A stretch of DNA of 64,000 nucleotides from contig JALSOH010000006.1 of the NCBI GenBank assembly GCA_026986575.1, positions 128,001-192,000 on the forward strand. The letters are read 5' to 3'. The notes beneath the pieces are model-generated. The model saw only the letters and a list, made by a program, of their open reading frames with translations, did not search any database and was not told where the DNA came from. Positions 2,155 to 59,447 of this stretch are shown piece after piece. This stretch comes from Thermoproteota archaeon (lineage in GTDB: Archaea; Korarchaeota; Korarchaeia; Korarchaeales; Korarchaeaceae). Positions within the stretch are counted from its first letter, which is position 1; every line of letters begins with the position of its first letter. A program made the position numbers and the translations under genes.

Positions 2155-3453
2155 TCAGGAGGACTTGATTATCTCAATGAGGTCGTCAGTCATCTTGTCA
2201 GCCTGATCCATGGTGACCGTGAGCGGGGGCTCGATCCTCACCACATTTCCAAACATGCCGCCAGTCCCGATTATGTATCCCCTCTTGAACATGCCCTCCT
2301 TGACCTTCTTCGTAAGCTCCGGATTCGGCTTCTTCCCGTCCTTGACGAGCTCAATACCTATGAAGAGGCCTCTCCCTCTCACCTCGCCTATAGATGGGAG
2401 AGCGGAGTCCCTGAGCTTCTTCATTATGAATTCTCCCACCTTATGGGCGTTCTCATGTAGCTTCTCCTCTAACATGACCTCTATCCCAGCGAGACCTGCC
2501 GCGCACGCCACCGGATTGCCAGAGAATGTGACGTTGTGATCTCCGGGCTCCCAAGCCCTGTCCACCTCATCCGTCGTCATGGTGCCAGCCAGTGGAAGTC
2601 CTGCTCCCAAGGCCTTGCCCATGGTCATTATATCGGCTCTGACATCCTCCCACTCGTGGGCGAAGATCTTACCGGTCCTCCCGAAACCGCTTTGCACCTC
2701 GTCCATTATGAGCAGGACGCCGTTCTCCCTAGCGATCTTCTCGAGTTCCTTCAACCAGCCATCGGGTGGGACTATTATCCCTCCCTCACCCATCACCGGC
2801 TCCATTATTATGGCGGCCACATTCTCCGATCCCAGATGGTACCTTATGTATTCGTCCACCTTCTCTAAGGTGTAGCTCTTGCAGGTCTCCACATCGCCGG
2901 GGAACCGGAAGCAGTAGGGGGAAGGAAGATGCACGACACCGGGATAGTTAGCGAAATGGCCTAAATGCCTCTTATACTTCCTCTCATGGGTGAGCGTGAG
3001 GGTCAGAGCTCCTCTACCGTGGAACGCGAAATCGAAAGCTATGACGTAGGCGCCAGTCTTACCCTGAACCTTCACCGAGTACTTCTTGGCCAGCTTTATT
3101 GCGCCTTCCACAGCCTCAGTGCCACTGTTGGCATAGTACGTCTTTTTGAGGTCCCCAGGAGCTATTTCCGCGAGCTTCTTGGCAAGCTCGAGAGCGGGAA
3201 CGTTGTAGTAGATCATACCTATGTGGGCGATCTTCTCCATCTGCTCCTTAACGGCGTTGACTATCTTGGGATGGGAATGACCGTAGTTAATAACTCCGAA
3301 TCCCGAGAAGAAGTCGAGATACTTGTTCCCATCCACATCCCAGATCTCAATTCCCTTGGCCTTTTCTAACACAATCGGGTATATTATTGGGTATGCACTC
3401 TGGAGGTAGGCCCTCCCATCCTCAACACTCAAAATACCACCTGAGAAAGCCAA
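2155..3453 (-). CDS. Class III PLP aminotransferase (GABA/ornithine-type)
   Basis: DVDGNKYLDF, NSGTEAVE, FHGR, EPVMGEGG, DEVQSGFGRTG, PLP lysine in MGKALG. Confidence 0.92.
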   Translation of the reverse strand: MAFSGGILSVEDGRAYLQSAYPIIYPIVLEKAKGIEIWDVDGNKYLDFFSGFGVINYGHSHPKIVNAVKEQMEKIAHIGMIYYNVPALELAKKLAEIAPGDLKKTYYANSGTEAVEGAIKLAKKYSVKVQGKTGAYVIAFDFAFHGRGALTLTLTHERKYKRHLGHFANYPGVVHLPSPYCFRFPGDVETCKSYTLEKVDEYIRYHLGSENVAAIIMEPVMGEGGIIVPPDGWLKELEKIARENGVLLIMDEVQSGFGRTGKIFAHEWEDVRADIMTMGKALGAGLPLAGTMTTDEVDRAWEPGDHNVTFSGNPVACAAGLAGIEVMLEEKLHENAHKVGEFIMKKLRDSALPSIGEVRGRGLFIGIELVKDGKKPNPELTKKVKEGMFKRGYIIGTGGMFGNVVRIEPPLTVTMDQADKMTDDLIEIIKSS

Positions 3454-7779: not shown

Positions 7780-8864
7780 TAGTTATGATGGAGGGCATAC
7801 TTGAGTACCTCTACAATCCCCTTGTGCTGAGCATCCTAGTTAATATGGCCGTATTCCTCATAGTTACCTTAAGCCTCAACCTAGAAACTGGATTTGCGGG
7901 CATTCCACAGTTCGGTAGGGTGTTAGCAGTTATAGCTGGAGCTATAGGCGCAGGTGCGATAGCAGGAAGGATGATGGCGGCTATGATGGGATTACCTGCA
8001 GGTATCGAATATGTAGGGGATCAGAACTTCGTGATCGTAGGAGAGTTAAACAAAGCCCTGGAATCAAGTCCCCTCCTATCGATAGGAGCTCTCATTCTTA
8101 GTTTGGCTGTGGCGGCAGTAATGGGAGGTATAATGGGCTATCTAGCATCCTATCCAGCGATAAGGTTGAAGGAAGCCTACTTAGGCATCACCCTGCTAGC
8201 TTTCGGCGACGCACTCCAAATAGTGGGAATGTACTACGATCCCTTGGCAGGTGGAACAGCGGGAATAGTAGTCCCCGATGTCTTCAGGTTCGTGGGGACA
8301 GGGGAAATAAGGTTCCTCAGCAGCACATTGATAATACTGGGAATAGCTATCTTGGTATACCTGTATGTCCAAAGGCTAGCTAGATCGCCCTTCGGCAGGG
8401 CCCTCAAGGCCATGAGAGATAATGAGCTCGCTGCCAAGGTATACGGGAAGGACATTGTAAGTTTGAGGGCCAAAACCTTAATCATAGGAGGCGCGCTGGC
8501 TGGGATGGGGGGTGCTCTCTGGACCCTTTACACCGGGAGCTTCAAAGCCCTCACCTACAACAGGCTTACTTGGACCTTCTGGCCTTGGGCGTTCATGATG
8601 TTAGGAGGTACTGGAAATAACCTCGGTATAGTTCTCGGTACCTTGGTATTCTCCACCGTCAGAAGTCTGATCTATGCGTACAAGACTGAACTGACGGCAT
8701 TCATACCAATAAATCCAAATTGGCTTGAGTATCTCCTGATTGGCGTCATAATAATCGCAATTGCCTTGTTCAGACCTCAAGGAATACTTCCAGAGAAGCC
8801 AGAGCTTCCACTATCGAAGAAGAAGATCGAGAGCATAAGGGCTTCCCTAGCTAAGGGAGACTGA
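7776..8864 (+). CDS. livM: Branched-chain amino acid ABC permease
   Basis: SLNLETGFAG, YLGITLL, SPFGRALKAMRDNE, MLGGTGN, FRPQGI. Confidence 0.88.
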   Translation: MIVMMEGILEYLYNPLVLSILVNMAVFLIVTLSLNLETGFAGIPQFGRVLAVIAGAIGAGAIAGRMMAAMMGLPAGIEYVGDQNFVIVGELNKALESSPLLSIGALILSLAVAAVMGGIMGYLASYPAIRLKEAYLGITLLAFGDALQIVGMYYDPLAGGTAGIVVPDVFRFVGTGEIRFLSSTLIILGIAILVYLYVQRLARSPFGRALKAMRDNELAAKVYGKDIVSLRAKTLIIGGALAGMGGALWTLYTGSFKALTYNRLTWTFWPWAFMMLGGTGNNLGIVLGTLVFSTVRSLIYAYKTELTAFIPINPNWLEYLLIGVIIIAIALFRPQGILPEKPELPLSKKKIESIRASLAKGD

Positions 8865-9891
8865 GTACTCCATCTCCACTTTTTCCTATCAATGTGGGGA
8901 TTTCATCCTTGACACCAAGTCTGGGGAGCAGGCACCTCACTAAACTACCCCTCCTATTTCCCGTTATGAATAGAGGTGATCCACTCCTTCTGACTTCACT
9001 TAGGAGAAGGTCCACCCCCTCGCAGGAGTCGGGGAGGTTCATCTCTCCGACCCTCTTGGAAAACTCGTAAGACCACTCTCCAGCCACGGCAACCTTCGAG
9101 TAGTCGACCCATCTCTCCCTAATCATTTTGAGAAAGGCCCATGTCCTCCCGGGCCTGTCCCTTCTGAGCTGAATGAAGATGAAAGGGCTTTCACCCAGCC
9201 ATCTAACCAAAAGGGTCGCGCTATCCGGATCATTAACCTTAGATGCGTCAAAGTAAACTATTCCGTTAATCTCCTTCCACCTAAGCTTCTTCTTGATTGC
9301 CTCAAGGTAAGCATCGATGTTCACACTTCCTAACCCGAGGAATTCCAAGATTTCGTTCAGAAGGACCGGGATCTCAGCACCCGGCAGGTGGGGGTGGGCA
9401 GGTCCGACCCTTACGAGCTTCTTGGCTTTTTTACTCATTATATCGTTTAAGTGATCGTTCGTCTCACCGCTGAACACTATTTCCGCTTTTCCAAAGGAAG
9501 AAGCAATGGATCTGGCTATTTTCTCCCTAGTCCTGCCCATCTCCTCCACGTGATCTAACCTCACATTGGTCACAGCAACGATTTGAGGCTTAACGAAGAG
9601 ATCGTTGAATACCCTCATCGTGTAAGGGGACACTCCCTGATTCTCTAGAACGCAATAATCCGAATGTGGAACGCTGAAGAGATTCTCGTAAAGCCTAGTG
9701 GGTCCTCTACGCCTCAAGATCTTGACGTCCTTTCCGATACAAAGAAGAGGGAGTGTACCAGTGACCTTGCAGAAAGAGGTCTTCTTCCTATAAACTACCT
9801 CACTGTGCAACGAAATGGATAAGCTTGTCTTCCCCCTAGTCCCTTGGACGGAGATCCTCGTATCGGCTATCCTCCAAGGCGGGCCCCTCAT
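8851..9891 (-). CDS. capB: Poly-gamma-glutamate synthase CapB/PgsB-like (Mur ligase superfamily)
   Basis: GTRGKTS P-loop, KVTGT, ENQGVSPYT, TNVRLDHVEEMG, KVNDPDS, RRDRPGRT. Confidence 0.8.
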   Translation of the reverse strand: MRGPPWRIADTRISVQGTRGKTSLSISLHSEVVYRKKTSFCKVTGTLPLLCIGKDVKILRRRGPTRLYENLFSVPHSDYCVLENQGVSPYTMRVFNDLFVKPQIVAVTNVRLDHVEEMGRTREKIARSIASSFGKAEIVFSGETNDHLNDIMSKKAKKLVRVGPAHPHLPGAEIPVLLNEILEFLGLGSVNIDAYLEAIKKKLRWKEINGIVYFDASKVNDPDSATLLVRWLGESPFIFIQLRRDRPGRTWAFLKMIRERWVDYSKVAVAGEWSYEFSKRVGEMNLPDSCEGVDLLLSEVRRSGSPLFITGNRRGSLVRCLLPRLGVKDEIPTLIGKSGDGVLSLP

Positions 9892-9900
9892 TCAATCCCC

Positions 9901-10344
9901 TCACACTTTTAGAAAATTAACTAAAATGGAGGTCACGGACAGCTGTAACGTAAAGAATATTGCCGAAAAAGTGACCGTCAATTCCGGTTCTCGCGACGTA
10001 TGTATGTCGTAGGATAACAGTCCAGGGAGCGTGGAAATCAAGAGATACTCGATGCATAAGGAGTTGAAAGTCATAATGAGAACGGTGACGGAGCTGATGA
10101 TGCTCTGAAGAAAGAACATTCTCATTCCATAGAACAGGAATTTCCTGTACACCAGCTCCCCAGCTAAATACGACGTTATAGAACTTACGATGATTACCGG
10201 AATTGATTCAGGCATCAGCGAGGAGAAGGAAGCCAGCAAAGGAATGGACAGGGACACCGCTCTGAAGCTGAACCTTTCATATGCAACCCATACAATAGAA
10301 AGAGCAATGATCAATGATGCGTAAGCCACTATTACTCCTTCCAT
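9901..10344 (-). CDS. capC: CapC/PgsC-like membrane protein
   Basis: 147 aa hydrophobic protein with LFYGMRMF (cf. LYGRR) and LPGLLSY (cf. IPGLIA); directly upstream of capB. Confidence 0.7.
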   Translation of the reverse strand: MEGVIVAYASLIIALSIVWVAYERFSFRAVSLSIPLLASFSSLMPESIPVIIVSSITSYLAGELVYRKFLFYGMRMFFLQSIISSVTVLIMTFNSLCIEYLLISTLPGLLSYDIHTSREPELTVTFSAIFFTLQLSVTSILVNFLKV

Positions 10345-10476
10345 CTCCGCTAGAGCCCTTGAATTACAAATAACGGTTTATGTCAAAAGGCGAAATTCGA
10401 ATCGTGATGTTAAAGACCTTAATATTTAATAGCTTTCGGACCTTCATATCCACGACCCTTCAAGGGGGGATATCCT

Positions 10477-11745
10477 ATGTCCACGGAACTCAATCCATGG
10501 GAAGTTGCCCTTAAGCAGCTTGATAAGGCTGCTAAGGTTATGAATCTCGATCCCGGACTACATGCGATTTTGGCCAAGCCCAAGAGGGTCCTCGAGGTGG
10601 CCCTCCCCGTCAAGATGGATGATGGATCCATAAAGGTCTTCACTGGGTGGAGGGTCCAGCACAACGACGCTAGGGGGCCCCACAAGGGAGGTATAAGGTA
10701 CCACCCCAACACCGATGTTAACGAGGTCAAGGCTCTAGCCATGTGGATGACTTGGAAGACCGCCGTCGTTGATGTGCCCTATGGTGGTGCCAAAGGAGGA
10801 ATACAGGTAGATCCTCACAAGCTCAGCCTTGCCGAGCTAGAGAGGCTCACTAGGAGATACGCCTATGCAATAGCCCCCATAATCGGTGTGGATGCCGATA
10901 TTCCTGCTCCCGACGTGTACACCTCCCCGAGGGAAATGGCTTGGATAATGGACACCTACAGCATGCTCAAGGGCTACCCCGAGCCCGGTATAATCACCGG
11001 CAAGCCGCTCGAGATAGGCGGTAGTGAGGGCAGAGTGGAGGCCACCGCTAGAGGTCTGCAATACACCGTTGAGGAGGCGCTTAAAGTCCTCGGTATAGAT
11101 CCGAAGGGAGCCACTGCTGCCGTGCAGGGATACGGTAATGCTGGTTACTTCTCCGCCAAGTTCATGCATGAGCTCGGTATGAAGGTCGTGGCAGTGAGCG
11201 ACACTAGAGGCGCCATCTACAACCCCGACGGCCTCGATCCCGATGCCGTGCTCGAGCACAAGAAGAAGACCGGCAGCGTGAAGGACTTCCCTGGCTCCAC
11301 TCCGATAGCTGCAGATCCTATAGAGGGTAACAAGAAGCTGCTCGAGCTTGATGTGGATGTGCTGATCCCTGCTGCAATTGAGAATGTAATAACTAAGGAG
11401 AACGCCGACAATGTGAAGGCAAAGATAGTGGCCGAGGCTGCCAACGGTCCGACCACGCCTGAGGCTGATGAGATACTGTTCCAGAAGGGCGTGCTTATAA
11501 TACCTGACATCCTCGCCAACGCCGGTGGTGTGACCGTCAGCTACTTCGAGTGGGTGCAGGCTAGGACTAGGGAGTGGTGGGACATAGACACCGTCAGGCA
11601 GAAGCTCAGGGCCAAGATGACCAAGGCCTTCAGGGACGTCTACAACAAGCACAAGGAAATGAACATAGACATGAGGACCGCTGCTCTGGTACTCGCTGTC
11701 GGCAGAGTGGCCAAGGCCATGGAGATCAGGGGCATTTGGCCCTGA
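10477..11745 (+). CDS. gdhA: Glutamate dehydrogenase
   Basis: [53 protein letters not shown]. Confidence 0.97.
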
Positions 11746-14277: not shown

Positions 14278-15654
14278 ATGAGACCTAGCTATATAATGCT
14301 GGCTTTCCTTCTAGCGTTCTTGTTCTTACTTTCTCCGTTATACGCACTTTCCTCACCTGAGGATGCAAAACTATATCTGAAACCCACGAGTGATACCTAC
14401 ATTTCCAAGGAATGTAGAGATTGCAAGATGTTCAATGAAAGCGAACTCAGAGTGGGGATGGAAGCTATTAAAGAGAGAAATCCTTTCGTTATCTCTCATG
14501 TAGAGTATAGGGTGATCCTCAGGGGCCCCTACAGCTCGCTGATAAAATTCAACTTATCCGAGATACCACCTGGGGCCGAAATAAAGCTTGCTAGACTCTG
14601 GCTTTACGTCAAGGAACCTCCTGAGGGCGGTTTGAAACTTCTACTTTACGTTTTAAGGGAGAAGTTCAATGACACGGAGACCACGTGGATTTACAGGACT
14701 AGCAGGGCTCGGTGGAAGACCTCCGGGGGGTACGCCGAACCAGACTATCTTACTAAGATCAGGGTGGACGAGACCCTCTCTGAAGGAAGGTCTGTAGGTT
14801 TCTTGGTAACAGACTATGTTAAGAGGGTCCTAAGTGGCCAAATAGAGGATTATGGACTGATAATAAGGCCAGATGTCGGCAAAGTGGAAGTCTCGGACTT
14901 CGGATCATCCTCGCACATGAATTTATATGTCGACTTCTACAGCAGCGAAGGTGCTGTTAGGGAGCACAAGAGCAAATATGTCCCCACACTTTACGTCGAG
15001 TTCGTCAAACCAACAGCTATCCTGAACATATCGAAGGACAGGGTAACTCTAGAAAGGGGAGAAAGTACCGAAGTAACTCTCATGGAAAGTGGGACCTTCC
15101 TTGGAAGTGTTGGACTTGGATACAGGATTGTAGAGGCCCCAAGTCTGAAAGTAGGCCCGCTTAAGATTACAATATCCAATTATACCAAGGAACCGGGATT
15201 CTCTGCCAATGTAAAGGTGGAAGCCAGCAAATACGCGCCCCCAGGGAAGTACGTGATAGAGTTCTATCCCGATACCTTCGGATATGGATCAGATGTAGTC
15301 GAATGGGGAAAGGTCAATCTTACCGTCACCGTTTCAGGAGAAACGGGAACCGAGGTTACATCGACTACTGAGTCCCAAACCGAAACCGGAACGCCCCCAA
15401 CGCAGACATCCGAGATCGGAACAACCACTCAGTCAACTATTGAGACATCTACCACAGAGTTCACGGGGACGGGAACTAGACCGACTAGCGGACCTCAAGG
15501 AGGTTCGTTCGCCCCTCAGTCCACAAGCAAGACAGCGATTACAGTCACTAGGACCACGACCAAGCCGCGCAGCCTAAGTCCTCTCACAGTAGCACTGGAA
15601 ATAATTGTGGTTGTACTTCTGGTGGCGGCCTTCCTGCTGATCAGGAGGAGGTAA
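14278..15654 (+). CDS. Cell-surface protein, DNRLRE/CBM96-like domain, Thr-rich linker, C-terminal anchor
   Basis: Signal peptide, DTYI, SLIKFNLSEIP..A.L.LY, ETTW, FYSSE..P.LYV, TM helix followed by RRR. Confidence 0.7.
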   Translation: MRPSYIMLAFLLAFLFLLSPLYALSSPEDAKLYLKPTSDTYISKECRDCKMFNESELRVGMEAIKERNPFVISHVEYRVILRGPYSSLIKFNLSEIPPGAEIKLARLWLYVKEPPEGGLKLLLYVLREKFNDTETTWIYRTSRARWKTSGGYAEPDYLTKIRVDETLSEGRSVGFLVTDYVKRVLSGQIEDYGLIIRPDVGKVEVSDFGSSSHMNLYVDFYSSEGAVREHKSKYVPTLYVEFVKPTAILNISKDRVTLERGESTEVTLMESGTFLGSVGLGYRIVEAPSLKVGPLKITISNYTKEPGFSANVKVEASKYAPPGKYVIEFYPDTFGYGSDVVEWGKVNLTVTVSGETGTEVTSTTESQTETGTPPTQTSEIGTTTQSTIETSTTEFTGTGTRPTSGPQGGSFAPQSTSKTAITVTRTTTKPRSLSPLTVALEIIVVVLLVAAFLLIRRR

Positions 15655-26595: not shown

Positions 26596-27870
26596 TCATC
26601 TCCCTCTCATTTTGAAGAGAGTGCATCTCTCCCCCTGAAACACGGGTTGGGCTCTCAACCTCCTCACGAGAGCTTCAGCCTTTGATGGAAGCGCTGAACC
26701 CTTTGCTGAAGATCCCATATGGGAGGGCTGACATACCAGCATGTAGCTGGCCCCCTCAGGCGTGGATGTCACATCGAAACTGAGGGTCTCCGCCCAGTAC
26801 CTGATCTTCACATCGGGGACGAAGATCGGAGAGCGGTACCTATCTAAGATGTACTTCATCTCATTGAATGTAGCCATGTCCACGGTGGGTCTCACCGTGG
26901 AAGCTAGTGTGAACCCTGAGGAGGCCACGAGCACCAGCGCTAGGACGGCGAGTATTCTCCCTCTCCCCACCTCGGCCTTCCCTCTAGAGAGTACGGCAGA
27001 TAGAGGTATCCCCCCTAAATTGCGAAACCTCATTACCCAACCTCTCCCGTAGACGGGGAGGCTGAACAGTAGCGAGACGAGACCTAAGGAGCCGTGCATC
27101 GGCTCCTTGTTCTTGTACCATGACCAGAGGAGAAGAAGGGAGGACACCAAGGGCACCAAATCTAAAAGACCCGAAGGTCCCACCTCTCCCTCGGCCACCT
27201 GTTCAACGAGGGCCACCCCTTTGGACACATCACCCCCGACTATCCAGGGCTGGAGAAAGGCTAAGGCGAGGAGGGCTGAACTAATTGAGGCCAAGGTCAT
27301 TGCCCTCCTGTCCCTCCTCAGTAAAGCGTAGAGGATAGAGAGGCCTACCGTGAACCCGAAATCCAAGATGTGGGTGAGCATGACCAAGAGAACCGAGATC
27401 GCCGCGCCCACCAAGTCCCTCAACTTCCCCTCTCTCCCGTACCTCAACGCGAAGAAGAGCCAAGAGAATACCCATATCAGACCGAAGGCGTTCTTCACGA
27501 AATCGGTAACCAGTCTAACAGTATAGTAAGAGGTGGTTAGTGCTAAAACCCCCAAGACGGCTGCCTCGTCATCTCCATCAACTTCCCTGAAGTACATGAA
27601 GGCCGGAATGAACATGAGCGAGGATATTATTGGGACCCCCACATTCACCGCCAAGATGTTATCTCCAGTAGCGAAGTAGAAGGGAAGCAGCAGGTAGAAG
27701 GTCAGTGGGGGATCTGGATGCCTGAGAGTCCAGTAGCTGGCTATCCAACTCACTTGGGCGGAGTAGTAGGGCCCATCTATTAGGGGAAGTAGGGGGGTCC
27801 TGAAATAGGCGTAGATGTAGAGAGCCAGTGGGACGATCAGGAATAGGAGCCACCTCATCCCTTTAACCAT
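26596..27870 (-). CDS. Polytopic membrane protein, possible GT-C glycosyltransferase
   Basis: DGPYY and DPPL in the first loop followed by many TM helices. Confidence 0.55.
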   Translation of the reverse strand: MVKGMRWLLFLIVPLALYIYAYFRTPLLPLIDGPYYSAQVSWIASYWTLRHPDPPLTFYLLLPFYFATGDNILAVNVGVPIISSLMFIPAFMYFREVDGDDEAAVLGVLALTTSYYTVRLVTDFVKNAFGLIWVFSWLFFALRYGREGKLRDLVGAAISVLLVMLTHILDFGFTVGLSILYALLRRDRRAMTLASISSALLALAFLQPWIVGGDVSKGVALVEQVAEGEVGPSGLLDLVPLVSSLLLLWSWYKNKEPMHGSLGLVSLLFSLPVYGRGWVMRFRNLGGIPLSAVLSRGKAEVGRGRILAVLALVLVASSGFTLASTVRPTVDMATFNEMKYILDRYRSPIFVPDVKIRYWAETLSFDVTSTPEGASYMLVCQPSHMGSSAKGSALPSKAEALVRRLRAQPVFQGERCTLFKMRGR

Positions 27871-28091
27871 TTCTCCACCTCCTCTCTCAGGAAATCAGGG
27901 AGCTCGTCGAATGGGATGATGGTTGTTCTCGCCCTAATATACGGCAGATCTTTATCTTCAAAACTACTGACGGCCAATACTCCTCCCTCGAACAGGTAGT
28001 ACGATATCTCCCCAATTACCTTGAGCGGAATAGCCTTCTCGGGGGTTACGCCCCTCAACCTCCCCTTGACCTCCCTCAGACTCAAAGCCAC
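27855..28091 (-). CDS. Small hypothetical protein
   Basis: Host-like codon use; overlaps the start of the next gene. Confidence 0.5.
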   Translation of the reverse strand: MALSLREVKGRLRGVTPEKAIPLKVIGEISYYLFEGGVLAVSSFEDKDLPYIRARTTIIPFDELPDFLREEVEKWLKG

Positions 28092-28173
28092 CCCCTCGCC
28101 GAATTAGCCTGCAGCATGAAGGTACTTCGCTTCCTCCTATATCAAACTTTTTCATGCTTGTGCCTGCCTGAAC

Positions 28174-29685
28174 TTGGGTGATAGCACGAAAGCTAGCTGG
28201 AAGCTACTGGCCATTGTAATCACACTCGCAGTGGTGCTCATCCCCCTGCCCCACCTGAGCGCTCAAGGTACCTTGACATGGTACGATCCCTTGGAGGAAC
28301 CGCAGCTACCTCAGCTGGATGTGAAGGCCATGCATATATCTTGGAACGGCAACATCACACTCGCGTTTGAGTTCTACGGAACCCCCTCGGTGGAGAACTT
28401 CACCGTGATAGGCAACGTGTATCTGGACAGGCTCGTGGAGGGTGAGGGCGTACCCGAGGGCGACGTTAAGGGAGCGGACTACAGGCTGGTGTTCTCCGTG
28501 AACCCCAACCGGACGGCCTGCTCAGTGCAGAGGTTCAACTCACTTAAGAATGGATGGGACACTCTTGCGGCCGCCTGCTGGGTGAGGATGGAGGGGGGGA
28601 GGGTGATACTCACCACTCCCAATGTGACGGCGGCCTTTCCCAAGGGAGAATTCGGTGTCAAGGCGTACATGTGGATGGTCGAGAGAGACGACTTCGACTG
28701 GGTGACTTACAAGCTGAAAAAGGAGGGAGCGGCGAAAATAGACGGGAAGCTAGGGGACTACGGTGCCCCTACAATACTGGACCCCGTCGGGGATGCCGAC
28801 AGGGTAGCCGATTACAAGGAACTTTACGTTAAGGACGACTTCTACAGGATTTACTTCGCGATAGTACCTGTGGACGGGCTAGGCTGCAACTTGAGAGGTT
28901 ATGGGGCGAGGCTGGAGAGGTTCTTCAACATATATGTGGATGCGGACCTTAACAGGAGCAACGGGCATGAGCTGTGGGAGAGTTACCTCTACAGGTGCAA
29001 TCTGACGGGCAGGATGTGGGAGAGGCTTCCCACTAAGGCTATATACGTGTCAAATCCCGCCCTTAGGAGGAAGGGCGTGATGGTCGGTGATGTGTTCGAG
29101 TCCTACGTGTACTTGGGTCCGGTGAGAAGGCAGATAGTTGATCACGGCAAGCAATTCGGCCTAAGGGCCAGCGTGGTGACTAGGCTTATGGACGCGATCC
29201 CAGATAGTGGGTGGCTCATCTACCGCAAGGATCACCTCTCCTCAAGCTCCTTCGAGGTGACCGGTCCTGATGTGGACATTAGTATGAGTAAGGATCTCTC
29301 AGACAGATTCAAGGCCTTCGGAAAAGCGTCAGGGCTTTACAGGATAACATTAGGAGGTCCAGCAGTCAATCCGTCCTACGGCGAGCCGGTAAAATTCGTT
29401 AAAGGAGAGAACGGCCTCTTCTATGGGGTTGAAATCGGCAACACGACCTACTGGGCGTCCTACGGACGCAGGGACTTCGCGGTAGTCGGAATCCACGAGG
29501 CTGGAGAGGGGATTTACATCACCGCAGCTGGTGTGACTAGGTTCGGGACCAGAGCCGCCTTGATCTGGCTCAGCGAGAACATGCCCTTGTTAAAAGAGGG
29601 GATATACGTCCTGAGCTGGATCGATGATGGAGACGGCAAGGTGGAGATCAGCGAGATAGGGGTGGTAACAGTTGAAGGATCCTAG
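28174..29685 (+). CDS. Secreted/S-layer-associated protein
   Basis: Signal peptide, DOMON-like repeats (DP.GD, YVDAD), C-terminal GGPAVN..AG.TRFGTRAA. Confidence 0.65.
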   Translation: MGDSTKASWKLLAIVITLAVVLIPLPHLSAQGTLTWYDPLEEPQLPQLDVKAMHISWNGNITLAFEFYGTPSVENFTVIGNVYLDRLVEGEGVPEGDVKGADYRLVFSVNPNRTACSVQRFNSLKNGWDTLAAACWVRMEGGRVILTTPNVTAAFPKGEFGVKAYMWMVERDDFDWVTYKLKKEGAAKIDGKLGDYGAPTILDPVGDADRVADYKELYVKDDFYRIYFAIVPVDGLGCNLRGYGARLERFFNIYVDADLNRSNGHELWESYLYRCNLTGRMWERLPTKAIYVSNPALRRKGVMVGDVFESYVYLGPVRRQIVDHGKQFGLRASVVTRLMDAIPDSGWLIYRKDHLSSSSFEVTGPDVDISMSKDLSDRFKAFGKASGLYRITLGGPAVNPSYGEPVKFVKGENGLFYGVEIGNTTYWASYGRRDFAVVGIHEAGEGIYITAAGVTRFGTRAALIWLSENMPLLKEGIYVLSWIDDGDGKVEISEIGVVTVEGS

Positions 29686-30304
29686 GCTAGTCCCAGTCGA
29701 GATAGCTGTGATGCTCCTCCAAGAGGTCCCTCAGAAGGCGCTCCGCGGAGTAGATCTGAAGCAGATAAGGGCTGAGGCCCAAACCCTAGTCTACAGCTTC
29801 ATGTCGTTGGAGGATCTGGCCGAGCAGGGAATGCTGGATGGGTTGGTTGCTAAGGGAAAGGAGCTACACTCCGTTTGGAGGGAATTGAGGGAGAGAGCCA
29901 GATCCCCGTCCGACGCCCTGAACGCGGCCAAGGTGAGGTTCGCAGCGATAACCTTGGAGGGCCTTCCTAACCGAGTCGGTAGGGAGCAGAGGCTGTACAG
30001 TGGGGTTGATTCGCTCTGGGGAACCATTGTCTCTATTAAACCGTTCGATGGACTCAGAGCGACCGTGGTGGACGCGGGCGAGAGGTTCAATGTGGTCACC
30101 AACCTGCAAGTGAGGGAGGGGGATGTGGTGGCCTTCGCCGTACTCCCCCCAAAGAGGTTCGGTTCTTACGTCTCGGAGGGCATGTTCATAGAGGCGGAGG
30201 GGGAGGGTAGGAGCGGTCAACCGGCCGTTCCAACCGAGAAGGGTAAGGGATCAATAGAGGCCGTTCTAAGAGAGGAGGCGGCTAGGCTTAAAGTGAAAAT
30301 ATGA
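29672..30304 (+). CDS. tRNA-binding OB-domain protein (Trbp/EMAP-like)
   Basis: YSFM N-terminal domain; VVTNL..EGD..A.LPP..F...SEGMF. Confidence 0.8.
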   Translation: MKDPRLVPVEIAVMLLQEVPQKALRGVDLKQIRAEAQTLVYSFMSLEDLAEQGMLDGLVAKGKELHSVWRELRERARSPSDALNAAKVRFAAITLEGLPNRVGREQRLYSGVDSLWGTIVSIKPFDGLRATVVDAGERFNVVTNLQVREGDVVAFAVLPPKRFGSYVSEGMFIEAEGEGRSGQPAVPTEKGKGSIEAVLREEAARLKVKI

Positions 30305-30314
30305 AGATCTAGCC

Positions 30315-31310
30315 CTAATCCTCCCCTCTCAACTCTCTCAGCAGGTTCCTCCAGAAGAGGTAGTCCTGCTCGGCTCTGTACAGTTCTGACCTACCAGTTA
30401 GGTAGGAGTCCCATCTCCTAGCGTACTCCAGAAGAAGGTCGTCGTGGTACCACCTTCCCAAGAAGTAAAGGAGCCTCACATGGAGTCTGTGGTAACGCTC
30501 ATCTGCCATTCCGTGCTTCGTGGAATAGAGGGACCAGTTCCCCGTATCATAATCTGGGAGCATCCTGTGCAGGGTCCCGAGTCCCTCCATAACGAGCTGA
30601 TAACCTCCGCTATCATTCATTAGACAGCTGTAAATGGTCAATCCCTTCAAGGACAACATGAAGCCGTTGAGCACCAAATCATCTGGGGAGTTAGAATACT
30701 CCAAGAAGAACCTTCCATAGATGGTATTCACGGAGAATCCACCCTCATTTCTCGGGATCAGGAAACTGTTCGCGAAACCCTTCGCCGCTCTCAGGTATTT
30801 AATGCCGCCAAATTTCCTGTATGCTATGGCGTAGTAGCCAGCAGCCAGCCCCTGACTCAGGGAGGAGTTCCAAGGAATCCCGGGAGCTTCCCATTGAAAG
30901 TAGTAGTTGAAGAACAACGCGTTGTCCTTCTCCTCCGCATATGAGAGCATCCAATCCATTATCTCCCTGAACTCACTCCAGTTCCTCCTGTACTGCAGGG
31001 CCTCCGTGGCTAGGTTCATCGCATTGGTGGGATGGACATTGAAACCCTGTCCTCTTATTTAGACGAGAGGGACGCCCACGCCCTCAGGTCTGTACCTCTC
31101 GAACTCCGAAGGCATTCTGACCCTCTCAAAGTACTCCAGATCCGCCTTCAAGGAGTCGATCAGCTGCTTCCTCGCGACTTCCCTGCTCCAGACGAGGTGC
31201 ATCCTTAGCAAAGTGTCTAGGACGTCAGCTAGGATGTAGTTCATCCCGCGCCTGTCTACAGTTCTGTGCTCGTGGCGGGGCGACGGAATTAGGAGAACCG
31301 CTAACAACAA
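30315..31310 (-). pseudogene. D-glucuronyl C5-epimerase-domain secreted protein interrupted by an in-frame TAA
   Basis: ORFs 31059-31310 and 30315-31019 share a frame (VPLV*IRGQGFNVHPT); W.S.LSQG, FLEY, VLNGF, YDTG.WSLY, YH.LHV. Confidence 0.75.
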
Positions 31311-54843: not shown

Positions 54844-55164
54844 CTAGTCCCCTAGGTTGGCTATCCTGATTCCCCTTCGCCTCACTTCAGAGAGTAGCTC
54901 AGAGGACTCATTCACAACGATTATATCGGGAGGGAGACCGGCATCCAGCAGATTTCTGATCTCCTCATCTAGCAGGGAGAAATAATCTAACTTCTCCAAG
55001 GGAACTATCACTATATCCACGTCACTCTCCCCGGGAATGGCGCAGCCCTCTACGAGCGAGCCCACCACGTATGCCTCCTTCACTAAGCCCGATAGTTTCC
55101 TTCCTATCCTCTCGATTACCTCCCTCAAATCTTCCAAGGAGACGGTCCTCACTGGATCAGTCAT
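54844..55164 (-). CDS. Minimal nucleotidyltransferase (MNT)
   Basis: VGS...G......SDVD, later PDI; 106 aa. Confidence 0.85.
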   Translation of the reverse strand: MTDPVRTVSLEDLREVIERIGRKLSGLVKEAYVVGSLVEGCAIPGESDVDIVIVPLEKLDYFSLLDEEIRNLLDAGLPPDIIVVNESSELLSEVRRRGIRIANLGD

Positions 55165-55335
55165 CTTTCACAATCCCCCCGCAGCTCCTTTATTATCTCC
55201 TCCATCAGATCCAGATCTTCTTCGGACAATGATGGGATTACCCCGTAATACCCCTTTTCCCTTACAGAGTATGCCTTGGAAATTCCCTTCACAAGCTCTT
55301 TCTTTGAGCCCCCAACTCTTCCCTCCTTTGATTCT
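55157..55335 (-). pseudogene. C-terminal remnant of a probable HEPN partner
   Basis: Startless frame ..AYSVREKGYYGVIPSLSEEDLDLMEEIIKEL..DD* overlapping the MNT start; 5' part absent where AT-rich DNA begins. Confidence 0.5.
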
Positions 55336-55420
55336 AGAGTTTATTCAAAATTTGTTACTTTATCATCAAGTAAATTATTAACGATAATGTTTATAAGATG
55401 ATTAAATTATTATAATTATA

Positions 55421-56725
55421 ATGGTCAGAGATACAAGAAGAATTGCCATCCAAAGAATGTGGATTTTGCTGACTTCTCTTTTCTTTGTTGTATCCTTAGT
55501 TATTCCTTTAGCCGTCTCAGTAATAGCGTCGGACTATTCCTATGACATGTCAATAAGTCTCACGAGAAGTGATCTATGTCAGAGTAAATTACCTTACTTC
55601 AATGTACTAGATTCTGGTACAAACAATATATCTTCTTCTCTAAGAGATGTCTACATAATTCCCGAATCAGAGATGCTGTTAATGAAAAAAGCTTTCGAGA
55701 AAGACTTCATGAGTTTAAGCAGAGAATATGTTAAGTATATGAACAGTTATAGCATTAAATACTTAAATATATCACGTATAGACAGGTGAGAGTGCGGGTT
55801 CCCACCGGTATTCTTTACTGCCGAAGAATGGCATATCCTTATGAATAGAGTAGTTACTCTAGACAAAGAGTTAAGGACACTACTAAGAATGTACAATATG
55901 GCCTTCAAGATCAACATATTAATACCTCCAACGGCTAATTCGTCTTATATCATTGCTAGTAGTAAGATCATTAAAAAATACGCTGAAAAACTTGAGAATA
56001 TTAAGCTAAGTATGATATTTATTATCGACTTAACAGGCAAAATCAACAGTCTATCGTTGGAGGATACGTACCATGTTCTCAGGGAAGTATCGGAAATAAC
56101 AAATATTCCCATGCAATTGGCCTTAGGCGGTCTCTTTGGAAAGAAAGTACTCGTTACTCCACAAAATAGATCAATTCTCACTAATTTTCAAACATTCAAA
56201 GACGTATTGACCAAGACCGCTGAAAGTAAGAGCATTCTCTCATCCTGCAGCACAATGTCTTGGTCTTGCAATACCATTTATAGCGGGGGGATATATGTTA
56301 ATAACGTTAACATGGATACGAAATGGTGGTATTGGAGGTACTTTCCCAGTCTGATTCCTTCAGGTTGTAAATATTACCATCCCTCTGAGTACGGTGCTTG
56401 TGATATACATTACGAAAGAGAGATGTTTTTCTACGCACAAGAGGATATAACATGGGGGCTTATTAATTTTTACGGAGCAGAATATGCATATAACTGCAGG
56501 TATCATAATCCAGATCCGAACAGCTATTGTGGATCAGCAAACACCTTAATCCATTCCACGTGTGCAATTAAATACGCTGATTTAGGTAGCAGGCTATACA
56601 GCCCGGGTTACTATATCTACGCATATTATACACTTACCAATCCATGCCCGTACTGTAGCTACTGCGGATGTTATTCAACGTGTGGGTATCCACAAATGTT
56701 TATAATCAATGTCATTGTACCATGA
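55421..56725 (+). CDS. Secreted precursor with Cys/Tyr-rich C-terminal domain; one in-frame TGA at 55787-55789
   Basis: ORFs 55421-55789 and 55841-56725 are in frame, linked by open codons (IDR*ECGFPPVFFTAEEWHILM); N-terminal signal/TM; AT-rich. Confidence 0.6.
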
Positions 56726-56789
56726 GATCAATAATTATCATAGCTAACAAATACTCCCCTATTTTTATGACCGTGAAAGGTGAATACTG

Positions 56790-59447
56790 ATGGAAAAACT
56801 GGAACATTTTATATTTCTAGTGATTTTAGTAATTGCTATCCTGACTATAGCCTATATTTTCGATAATTATAATTACTTAGTTTCTAGTGTTTCTAGTACT
56901 AAAATAATTAAAACCAATAATATTACTACTAACAGAGCCAATACAAGATGTACAAACACCAGTAGAGAAGCTATTGGAAAAATAAATGCTTCTAATATCG
57001 GATTAAGGGAAAGACTTAATGCCTCTTTGTTCTTCATTGATGACTTGAACTGTGATGGCGTAACCGACTTGATCGTGGCAAAAGGTGATGAGTTATCTGG
57101 TGTCTCGCTATCCCACGGGGAGAAACGGGTTCTCTGGAAGTACGATGCAAAGGGGTCGATAACGGCCCTCTCAGTAATCGAATCCGATGAAGGCGCGCCC
57201 GTTGTTCTGGCGAGCTTCACCTATGAAGGGAGGATCTACGCGCTTAAAATGGGTCAGCTACTGTGGACTTTCAGCCCCTCCGATGAGGCGACTAGAGGCA
57301 GCTATCTTTTCATCCCTATCATAAAGACGGGCGACCTCAACGGGGATGGGAGAGATGAAGTGGTGGCTTACGAATTCTACACGACAGAGATGTACGCGCT
57401 GAGCCAGGATGGAAGGCTCCTCTGGAGGATTAAGGTCAATCAATCCGTGGAAGGGCTTACAATAGCTGACTTGAACGGCGATGGAAAGGGGGAGATAGTG
57501 TACAGTGGATATGAGCCTCCTGAAGGGACACCCTTCCCCCAATCGGTGAGCTACCTCTTGGGCCTCATCAACGGTGAGGGCAAATCACTATGGAAGGTGA
57601 GGGATGCTGCTTACCGACACTCCGAGCCATTGGTGGTAGATTTAGATGGTGACGGCACTCCAGAGATAGTTACTGGATGCAGGGAAGGCCTTTGCGTGCT
57701 GAACGGAGAGGGTGTCCTTGAATGGACCTTTAAGACATCCCCCGGAACCTTCAGGCCAATCTCCGGCGATTTGAACGGAGATGGCAGGCCAGAGATCGTT
57801 TTCGCTACGGTGAACGGTTCTGTTTACGCGGTGAGCTTCGATGGCGGAGCGGTCTGGAGGTATGACGCAGGCAGTATGGACTCCTCTCCCCTAATGTGGG
57901 ATGTTGATGGCGACGGACAGAGCGAGATTCTGATCCCGTGCGAGGATGGATTGAAGGTCCTAAGTCGCAACGGTACTGTTGAGTGGGTGTACGGGAAAGA
58001 GAGCCTCAGTGTAGCCCACGCAGACGTAGATGGAGACAGAGAGGGAGAACTCTTGGTATTGACTCCATCCGGTCTAGAGGTCCTCGATAGCACCAGATAT
58101 CGATTGGAGGTGGAAACCCACCCTTACGAGATCGTCGTCAGGTTAGAGCAAGACATAATACCCCTGACCGCGCAGGAGAGGAGGATCTTCATAAAATCCA
58201 CAGCCGCCACCTTCTACAGAATCAACGATTTCGAACTCGCCCTGAACGCCCTCCCCGGCAAGTACGAGATCGGCTTGATGGTAGGTAATTGGGTCGCGGC
58301 CACGCGAAGGGTGGTCGTCCCTTGGACTCCGACCATGGAGTGGCCGAGCCCATCAGGATCTGTTTCTAGGAGCTTCTTGGTGAGATACGCCACTGGCAAG
58401 GGGATAAGTATCGAACATGAAGAGACCCCCTTTCCCGACTATACTCTGACTCCCCTCATCGGAGATGTTGATGGGGATGGTAGCCCAGATCTAATCCTCA
58501 TGGACGGTAGGGAGATGCAGATATTCGATATGAGCGGGAGAGTCGTTGAAGTTCAGCTGGATAGCGAAGCTAGAGGGGGAATTATAGCCGATCTGAACGG
58601 GGATGGCATCTCTGAAGTCCTAGTAGTGGAAAGGAGGGAGGTTCAGGCGTTCTCCCACCTTACCAATCTATGGAACTTCAAGGCTGAGAACGGTGAGGAG
58701 TTCACTGGAGCGGCGATAACGCCCGTGGGGAGGGAGAAATGGCTGGTCATCACTGCAAGATCGAGCGTCTACTCCCTCACACCTGAGGGCACCTTGAAGT
58801 GGAAGCTGAGCCTAGGTGGAGAGCTGTCGCCACCGGCCATGTCAGATATCGATAATGACGGTGAATTTGAGGCTGTGGTAGCCGTTAATCTAGGTAATAA
58901 GTCTGAGATCTTTGCAGTGGATGAAGGGGGAACTCCCAGCCCGATTATCTCGATGAACGCAGGTGTGAGGGAGATCCTCGTATCTGATATTGGAGGCGAC
59001 GGCACCAAGGATCTCGTAATGCTGTGCAATTCCGGCTTATACATCAAATCAGGGGAAAACATCGTTCTAATTCTACCGGATGCCTATCCACCAGCAATAG
59101 CCGACATCGATGGAGATTCGAGGATAGATGTAGTGGCATCCTCCAAAGAGGGTATCCTCACGATAGTCACGGCCGAGGGCGTCAGGAAGTTTAGCTTAGG
59201 GTTTGAAGCCGCCTCTCCACCTGTAGTAGTCGATCTAAAGAATGAAACTTCTAAAATTCTATTAGGTGACTACCAGGGACGCCTACACCTCATCGACCTA
59301 GAGGGGACCGCAACATCTACGATCAAGGTATCTCGCTTTCCCGTGAGGGGAGTCTATCCCGTGGATTTGGATTCGGACGGTCGCTTGGAAGTGGTATTCA
59401 CAGACCTCGAGGGAGTTCACGTGCTCTCCTCGGGTCATCTTCCTTAA
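56790..59447 (+). CDS. Membrane-anchored FG-GAP/VCBS repeat beta-propeller protein
   Basis: N-terminal TM helix; many D[LVI][ND]GDG Ca-binding repeats with LLW/KW motifs in two clusters. Confidence 0.85.
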   Translation: MEKLEHFIFLVILVIAILTIAYIFDNYNYLVSSVSSTKIIKTNNITTNRANTRCTNTSREAIGKINASNIGLRERLNASLFFIDDLNCDGVTDLIVAKGDELSGVSLSHGEKRVLWKYDAKGSITALSVIESDEGAPVVLASFTYEGRIYALKMGQLLWTFSPSDEATRGSYLFIPIIKTGDLNGDGRDEVVAYEFYTTEMYALSQDGRLLWRIKVNQSVEGLTIADLNGDGKGEIVYSGYEPPEGTPFPQSVSYLLGLINGEGKSLWKVRDAAYRHSEPLVVDLDGDGTPEIVTGCREGLCVLNGEGVLEWTFKTSPGTFRPISGDLNGDGRPEIVFATVNGSVYAVSFDGGAVWRYDAGSMDSSPLMWDVDGDGQSEILIPCEDGLKVLSRNGTVEWVYGKESLSVAHADVDGDREGELLVLTPSGLEVLDSTRYRLEVETHPYEIVVRLEQDIIPLTAQERRIFIKSTAATFYRINDFELALNALPGKYEIGLMVGNWVAATRRVVVPWTPTMEWPSPSGSVSRSFLVRYATGKGISIEHEETPFPDYTLTPLIGDVDGDGSPDLILMDGREMQIFDMSGRVVEVQLDSEARGGIIADLNGDGISEVLVVERREVQAFSHLTNLWNFKAENGEEFTGAAITPVGREKWLVITARSSVYSLTPEGTLKWKLSLGGELSPPAMSDIDNDGEFEAVVAVNLGNKSEIFAVDEGGTPSPIISMNAGVREILVSDIGGDGTKDLVMLCNSGLYIKSGENIVLILPDAYPPAIADIDGDSRIDVVASSKEGILTIVTAEGVRKFSLGFEAASPPVVVDLKNETSKILLGDYQGRLHLIDLEGTATSTIKVSRFPVRGVYPVDLDSDGRLEVVFTDLEGVHVLSSGHLP

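Follow-up and report, generated by a model that had tools for sequence, protein, structure and literature searches.

A minimal capC-capB gene pair head-to-head with glutamate dehydrogenase in Korarchaeota, a candidate synthase of a glutamate polymer

The window analysed here is a stretch of 64,000 nucleotides from a Thermoproteota archaeon of the Korarchaeota (GenBank assembly GCA_026986575.1, contig JALSOH010000006.1, positions 128,001 to 192,000). It carries a pair of genes resembling capB and capC, which encode the ligase and the membrane partner of poly-gamma-glutamate (PGA) synthesis, next to the glutamate dehydrogenase gene gdhA. The locus consists of the following features:

8851-9891, minus strand: capB-like ATP-dependent amide ligase of 346 amino acid residues (best NCBIfam match TIGR04012, predicted fold, tree and conserved residues)
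9901-10344, minus strand: capC-like helical membrane protein of 147 residues with one CapC domain (weak PF14102 match, profile-profile match and all-helical model)
10345-10476, no strand: divergent intergenic region of 132 bp (alignment of 11 loci)
10477-11745, plus strand: gdhA, glutamate dehydrogenase (GDH) of 422 residues (GdhA_Arch match)

An earlier note on this DNA had described capC-capB as lying head-to-head with gdhA across a gap of ~130 bp. The open reading frames (ORFs) were found where that note had placed them, with 132 bp between the start codons of capC and gdhA and 9 bp between capC and capB. The host assembly (genome G000) comprises 1.91 Mb and is 99.69% complete, and its best match among named proteins, at 93% identity, carries the label Candidatus Korarchaeota. 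The gdhA product scored 645 bits with GdhA_Arch (cut-off 750), and gdhA was the sole match in the genome at E ≤ 1e-30. Korarchaeota genomes were sourced from vents and hot springs (Tahon et al.), and temperate members are also reported in the abstract of a separate paper.

The top NCBIfam model for the 346-residue protein was PgsB (TIGR04012; E 5e-18, 64.9 bits, under the cut-off of 222.7). FolC (TIGR01499) was the second-best profile (E 4e-5, 23.2 bits, cut-off of 162.65 not reached). With TIGR04012, all 12 other archaeal-type proteins scored 53-98 bits, below the cut-off, and all 10 bacterial proteins passed it with 242-428 bits. The P-loop GTRGKT occupies residues 17-22 and is preceded by only 16 residues, which leaves no space for an N-terminal membrane helix; the corresponding ATP-binding motif of PgsB, G-x-R-G-K-[ST], has been described (PMC6029982). 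N-terminal hydrophobicity was 1.9-3.2 in 13 of the 15 scorable bacterial rows, whereas none of the 29 archaeal-type rows exceeded 1.2. The earlier note had drawn attention to CapB motifs without an N-terminal transmembrane helix. The helix is truly absent, but this is unsurprising, since it is absent from all 29 archaeal-type CapB proteins tested. The predicted structure (predicted local distance difference test, pLDDT, 87.9) contained the Mur middle and C-terminal domains, and residues 1-329 gave Z of about 21-22. The fold search put Mur ligases, FolC and cyanophycin synthetase (CphA) almost level (Z 19-22); for FolC and the Mur ligases by themselves Z was 18-22, with 10-18% identity in the structural alignments. 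Searches of the PDB returned matches limited to Mur/FolC/CphA, with no solved entry for CapB or CapC. CapB is basic, with a computed isoelectric point (pI) of 9.7, which contrasts with the character of halophile proteins.

A quick maximum-likelihood tree was built from 55 rows (45 CapB-type and 10 FolC/Mur), with support given by the Shimodaira-Hasegawa-like approximate likelihood ratio test (SH-aLRT); L086, L110 and L122 were left out because the P-loop pattern missed them. All 45 CapB-type rows stood apart from the 10 FolC/Mur rows (SH-aLRT 100), and because of this separation the protein does not group with FolC. In the phylogeny that had been proposed as a check, against haloarchaeal CapB, MurC-F and FolC, it fell with haloarchaeal CapB and outside FolC/Mur at support 100. 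Identity as FolC or as a cofactor ligase was rejected on this tree and on the profile scores (23 bits for FolC, 65 for PgsB). Within the CapB-type rows, bacterial PgsB (97) was separated from an archaeal-type clade (98), whose members are Korarchaeal proteins, haloarchaea, Methanomicrobiales, an Acidilobaceae bin, one bacterial bin and further proteins. The same split was supported at 100 in a second tree of 37 rows. The archaeal-type clade is separate and long-branched. Korarchaeal CapB, represented by 16 rows in the second tree, was not monophyletic in the best trees, with a single origin not rejected (approximately unbiased test, p-AU 0.40).

Sixteen residues were invariant in all 45 CapB-type rows, including G17-R19-G20-K21, K42-T44-G45, E83, N109, H114, N220, S224, R243, D245 and R249. 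The C-terminal motifs N220-D221 and R-x-D-R-x-x-R were common with bacterial PgsB in nearly all rows. In the neighbourhood of the metal site, archaeal-type CapB reads E-N-Q instead of E-x-M.

The 147-residue protein matched CapC (PF14102) at E 0.0011 with 19.9 bits, below the cut-off of 27, and had no match to TIGR04011 at E 0.1. PF14102 was matched at E ≤ 0.1 by 17 of the 27 aligned CapC homologues. When the profile of these homologues was compared with a profile of 18 bacterial PgsC sequences in hhalign, the probability was 95.8 and E was 6.9e-9 over 110 columns. The CapC-like membrane partner suspected in the earlier note was thus recovered by the profile-profile match, with the direct PF14102 score under its cut-off, and the CapC homology is real. 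The structural model was all-helical (pLDDT 93), with no PDB match at E ≤ 0.001. In the profile search against PgsB and PgsC, PgsB was the top model and PF14102 was matched, both genes staying under the family cut-offs. The assignment of the 346-residue and 147-residue proteins to the CapB/CapC family, and to neither FolC nor a cofactor ligase, is supported by these sequence comparisons. In all four haloarchaea viewed, CapC measures ~390-420 residues and consists of two tandem CapC domains (L126:4343-5509, L127:3736-4920, L128:3340-4557 and L131:3650-4906). Because these proteins are tandem duplicates, the single-domain CapC is suggested to act as a dimer.

Matches to capB were found in 22 of 61 relatives, including the host genome, and a profile search gave 22 of the 43 genomes in the phylum. 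The carriers besides the host are 17 of the 20 other genomes of its own genus (g1) and all four of genus g5, with none elsewhere in the phylum; they include Ca. Methanodesulfokora washburnensis and Ca. Korarchaeum sp. Two of the three misses in the own genus (63% and 70% complete) are also without gdhA, and in the third gdhA is truncated by a contig end on the capC side. Every g1 and g5 genome with an assembled site has capB-capC. The head-to-head order capB-capC-gdhA was intact in 20 of the 22 carriers, the other two running into contig edges, and the block was conserved down to about 31% CapB identity. The gene arrangement is therefore not due to chance, and the synteny with gdhA that was to be checked extends over two Korarchaeota genera. 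Each of the 20 intact orthologous loci has capC immediately upstream of capB, as do 9 further archaeal-type loci and a second copy in G007. Between capC and gdhA lie 129-216 bp in 19 loci; the remaining locus has 77 bp, probably because of an over-called start. In G012, G015 and G016 the three-gene block is inverted relative to the window, between livM and a radical SAM gene, which is a single inversion of the block as a unit. The flanking genes vary between subclades, and no glycosyltransferase or acceptor gene accompanies the block, which lies amid amino-acid uptake and transamination genes in most g1 loci.

The groups of the GDH tree largely matched those of the CapB tree, with 16 own-genus and g5 rows on one side (support 99) and five non-carriers on the other. 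This agreement points to joint vertical inheritance. No capB or capC was present at the five non-carrier gdhA loci. In G023, one of these genomes, a homologue (34%) of the oxidoreductase flanking capB in g5 lies ahead of gdhA, and the locus looks like an empty site. The gain of GDH has been placed in the ancestor of Korarchaeum, Methanodesulfokora and Fumariihydrokora (Tahon et al.).

Related pairs were also seen outside this block. In the phylum of the Acidilobaceae bin, 3 of 401 sampled genomes matched, and two other genomes of that phylum contain minimal capC-capB pairs, one of them partial (L162:1022-2604 and L164:1486-1881), with no gdhA in the fetched flanks. A second, distantly related capC-capB pair with intact CapC motifs is present in G007 (L088:5429-7152, also L023), and its nearest relative is the pair of the Acidilobaceae bin. 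It lies between EutA-like and major facilitator superfamily genes that are direct neighbours in the host genome (L025), and appears to have been inserted recently. A bin with the label Mycobacteriales also contains an archaeal-type capC-capB pair (L041:5357-7053), through either transfer into bacteria or a binning error. Among 29 pattern matches on viral contigs, there was no relative.

Both genes are under purifying selection. Where synonymous divergence (dS) was measurable and unsaturated, the ratio of nonsynonymous to synonymous divergence (dN/dS) was 0.115-0.147 for capB, 0.09-0.22 for capC and 0.01-0.03 for gdhA, and the capB and capC frames were open in all 20 intact loci. The comparison with G011 covered 132 of 155 ORFs (177 kb, in 20 contig pieces) and gave a median identity of 92%, against 66% for capB and 64% for capC; 11 of the 132 ORFs had 66% identity or less, and several of these looked like paralogues or false frames. 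In a comparison of orthologous neighbours, made in the ten loci that contain them, the least conserved genes were capB, capC and the gene of a DNRLRE-domain protein. The latter (14278-15654 in the window) has a signal-like N-terminus, a Thr-rich linker and a hydrophobic C-terminal tail, and is likely a surface protein. It diverges at the pace of capB and capC (49-68% identity, compared to 80-98% for most neighbours). Synonymous divergence to G011 was 0.42 for gdhA, 3.3 for capC and 2.2 for livM; the low value of gdhA is consistent with strong codon bias or local recombination.

The alignment of 11 loci revealed two conserved blocks in the intergenic region, at 10369-10399 and, AT-rich, at 10410-10433. 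In the seven most distant loci, identity was 0.79-1.00 for 10410-10433 and 0.58-1.00 for 10369-10399, compared to 0.29-0.42 for the capC leader. From the archaeal consensus, we take 10410-10433 to be the candidate TFB recognition element (BRE)/TATA of gdhA, and 10369-10399 to be the candidate TATA of capC together with a possible operator. The capC and gdhA sides thus appear to have separate TATA-like elements. The candidate operator was not evident in the alignment of nine more distant loci. An 18-bp conserved intergenic motif occurred once in the host genome at up to 3 mismatches and its shorter versions gave 6-7 scattered matches, so that no regulon was found there. A sigma-70 promoter scan, a model unsuited to archaea, gave counts at chance level.

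Codon adaptation (self-trained index, 1535 frames) ranked gdhA in the 97th percentile, against the 18th for capB and the 2nd for capC, and the low values of capB and capC suggest low expression. GDH in peptide-fermenting thermophiles often runs toward glutamate breakdown. The suggestion in the earlier note that the polymer is fed by co-regulated GDH is not borne out by this picture of apparently separate TATA-like elements, widely differing codon adaptation and an often catabolic enzyme. Shared control via the conserved block between the promoters is possible, at about even odds. The capCB pair could also be kept beside gdhA because breaks in the compact promoter region are harmful.

Partner genes known from PGA systems were searched for in the whole host genome. 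No match was found to CapA (PF09587), to the glutamate racemase MurI (TIGR00067), to PghP-type PGA hydrolase (PF05908) or to CofE, each of which matched in control genomes. GGT/CapD (PF01019) was likewise without a match in the host, with 8 of 14 controls positive, and a Bacillus GGT fragment used as query also gave none. One PgsW query had no match in the host genome, and the PgsW family profile matched no control genome. The absence of capA, capD and a glutamate racemase from the window, as previously noted, thus extends to the search of the 99.69%-complete genome. CapA was found in 2 of 36 family genomes, both of a genus without a capB match. CapB is the only Mur_ligase_M match in the host genome, where no separate FolC was found.

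One gene of the Asp/Glu racemase family (PF01177) is present elsewhere in the host genome. Its top score, below the cut-off, was to EutA/arylmalonate decarboxylase-like proteins; with this best match and no MurI found, it was rejected as a glutamate racemase. A class III pyridoxal phosphate-dependent aminotransferase gene lies at 2155-3453 of the window, beside a liv operon. An orthologue of its product scored 292-300 bits with archaeal racemase models, whose cut-offs are 639-800. As the class III aminotransferase fold includes archaeal amino-acid racemases, a D-amino-acid source may exist.

The reading that we favour, with a probability of roughly 0.55, is that capC-capB encodes a minimal synthase that makes an L-glutamate gamma-amide polymer and exports it. 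CapB would lie on the inner face of the membrane, docked on a CapC dimer and held by CapC alone, as it lacks a membrane helix. The ligase would use ATP to phosphorylate the terminal gamma-carboxyl and then add the next L-glutamate, with the carboxylate bound through the Arg-rich patch R243-x-D245-R246-x-x-R249. CapC would pass the growing chain out of the cell, and gdhA would be an inherited neighbour with its own candidate promoter. These steps are modelled on Bacillus PgsBC and on Mur-ligase chemistry. In B. subtilis, PgsBC without PgsA yielded 26 g/L of polymer with a D/L ratio of 5/95, compared to 75/25 with pgsA (Sawada 2018, PMC6029982). Because PgsBC alone thus gives about 95% L-polymer, L-polyglutamate is the best guess for the product, and an L-rich product is also expected from the failure to find CapA or MurI. 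Natrialba and Natronococcus produce pure L-polymer, and a different synthase has been suggested for some L-PGA producers (PMC3815933). Since no CapD was found, the chain would be shed or loosely held, with no covalent anchoring by the known route. Of the L-PGA capsule proposed in the earlier note, the L-rich product is thus retained as the expectation for a pair lacking CapA (PMC6029982), but the capsule was overstated, as no CapD/GGT anchor was found in the host genome; the polymer may equally well be released or held loosely.

Several observations weigh against a PGA-like synthase. Both proteins miss their family cut-offs, both genes diverge unusually fast between close relatives, and their codon usage suggests low expression. 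Residues fixed in bacterial PgsB are altered in CapB (Q to N70, M to Q85 and F to G171, with N and D lost at 174 and 193). The CapC reference motifs G-G-x-x-V-P-G-Y and YGRR, derived from our own alignment of 18 bacterial PgsC, are also changed: the Gly-Gly loop is gone in all eight Korarchaeal CapC rows but present in all seven other archaeal-type and in four of six bacterial rows, and YG[ML][RK] is read where YGRR is expected, with one Arg replaced. The later P/S/A-G motif is retained. An earlier study cited by Sawada (PMC6029982) saw no PGA without pgsA, and in the literature consulted no archaeal-type CapCB pair has been demonstrated to make PGA.

The altered CapC fits an alternative in which a membrane acceptor, for instance a surface protein or a lipid-linked glycan, receives a single gamma-glutamyl (or glutaminyl) unit or a few of them from the pair, as has been suggested for the glutaminylglycan wall of Natronococcus, with no long free chain being exported. 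The anchor and hydrolase genes not found in the host genome and the pace of evolution shared with the neighbouring, likely secreted DNRLRE-domain protein agree with this, and haloarchaeal CapB has been proposed to serve glutaminylglycan (PMC11915815). However, the block, whose flanks differ between subclades, is not accompanied by any glycosyltransferase or acceptor gene, and the catalytic residue set agrees with PgsB. We regard this alternative as rather unlikely. If the monomer were another amino acid, such as glutamine or aspartate, or a mixture, the product would be a polyamide distinct from PGA. This reading would suit the long-branched clade, its E-N-Q substitutions by the metal site and the uptake and transamination genes around most g1 loci. 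It is quite improbable, given the C-terminal motifs common with bacterial PgsB, the L-PGA produced by sister haloarchaea (PMC3815933) and the gdhA link, which points to glutamate.

Fast divergence, low codon adaptation and the G023 gdhA gene, which lies beside the same oxidoreductase family without capCB, would also be expected if the pair were a weakly constrained, barely expressed relic, retained since breaking the short gap harms the gdhA promoter. The open frames, a dN/dS well under 1, catalytic residues invariant down to about 31% identity and the presence of capCB at every assembled g1 and g5 site make such a relic very improbable. Still harder to credit is the idea that CapB acts like FolC and polyglutamylates a cofactor such as folate or F420. 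CapB is indeed the sole Mur_ligase_M protein of a genome with no separate FolC found, and FolC is its second-best profile and ties with Mur ligases in the fold search. In the tree and by score, however, it belongs with CapB, every intact locus pairs it with a CapC membrane protein, and CofE was not found in the genome. A more far-reaching scenario, which we consider doubtful, is that the ancestor of the two Korarchaeota genera fixed capCB by gdhA and rebuilt CapC, so that the pair would now produce a polyamide of the cell surface, or a glutamyl modification, that differs from known PGA and is controlled jointly with GDH via an operator between the promoters. If true, this would be a two-protein polyamide synthase stable to heat, and these thin filamentous archaea would have an envelope layer so far unrecognised, which changes as fast as a surface antigen.

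Part of this picture is already in print. CapB has been listed in Halobacteria, some Methanosarcinales and 'Korarchaota' (PMC11915815), in the supplements of which 'Korarch' gave no match. PGA systems have been reported in archaeal genomes (PMC5542703) and for Haloquadratum. The available main text of Tahon et al. mentions neither capB nor a capsule. That one-line mention in PMC11915815 was all that was found on this locus, and searches within reach, which excluded subscription journals and bioRxiv supplements, returned nothing on the gdhA link, the altered CapC motifs or the fast rate. CapB in Korarchaeota and the loss of its helix are thus not new, the latter being general to the archaeal clade, and with capA also absent from two of four haloarchaeal loci, the locus is less surprising than had been supposed. 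The gdhA link, the fast evolution and the lost CapC motifs were not found in the literature searched.

In the literature consulted, archaeal CapCB pairs are at the stage of prediction, and an enzyme for archaeal L-PGA is not yet assigned. The korarchaeal pair is the smallest form in this comparison (493 residues, two genes, no anchor helix). Its small size and its origin in a lineage found chiefly at vents and hot springs make it a handy candidate for a first CapB-CapC structure and assay, and it could serve as a heat-stable catalyst for L-PGA. Within the Korarchaeota the pair is core in two genera, whereas only 3 of the 401 genomes sampled from a neighbouring archaeal phylum have it, so it may be the mark of an envelope feature in the korarchaeal lineage. 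Should the pair prove inactive or ordinary, this archaeon would be one further host for a known system.

Two other regions of the window were noted. The region 26596-31019 encodes a PMT_2 (GT-C type) membrane protein, two unassigned ORFs and a protein with a D-glucuronyl C5-epimerase C-terminal domain, possibly for the modification of a surface glycan. The region 55037-59447 has a lower GC content (about 45%), with three unassigned ORFs and an 885-residue FG-GAP repeat protein.

Among known systems, FolC/folylpolyglutamate synthase (FPGS) and MurC-F have the same two-domain fold as CapB and, going by the chemistry of the family, the same acyl-phosphate mechanism, but they form the outgroup in the tree and have no membrane partner. 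The Bacillus systems PgsBC(A,E) and CapBC(A,D,E) are alike in their homologous ligase and membrane partner and in the P-loop, metal-site and C-terminal Arg motifs. They differ in that the korarchaeal pair belongs to the sister clade, misses both cut-offs, has the reverse gene order and lacks the CapB helix, and in that no CapA, CapD or MurI was found in the host genome. The pgsB-pgsC-pgsW locus of Cetobacterium somerae, an example of bacterial PGA loci that have PgsW and no CapA, resembles the korarchaeal locus in having no capA in the stretch viewed, but its third gene, pgsW, had no match in the host genome with the single query used. In the CapsuleFinder model for PGA (PMC5542703), adjacent CapB and CapC are mandatory, and CapA and CapE are accessory. 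Adjacent homologues of both are present in the korarchaeal locus, each scoring below the library cut-offs.

The haloarchaeal pairs of Haloferax volcanii (HVO_RS00750/00745), Haloarcula hispanica (HISP_RS17295/17290) and Haloquadratum walsbyi (capCB) belong to the same clade and have the same order, capC then capB. Their products are predicted from genomes and are untried in the literature consulted. Haloarchaeal and korarchaeal CapB alike have no N-terminal helix and carry the E-N-Q motif, and capA is absent from two of the four haloarchaeal loci viewed, as in the korarchaeal locus. In contrast to haloarchaeal CapB, the korarchaeal protein is basic (pI 9.7) and has a very short N-terminus, and its CapC is a single domain of 147 residues without the Gly-Gly loop instead of a tandem of ~390-420 residues. 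The korarchaeal block is fixed beside gdhA and co-inherited with it; the four haloarchaeal loci viewed are plasmid-borne and have varied neighbours.

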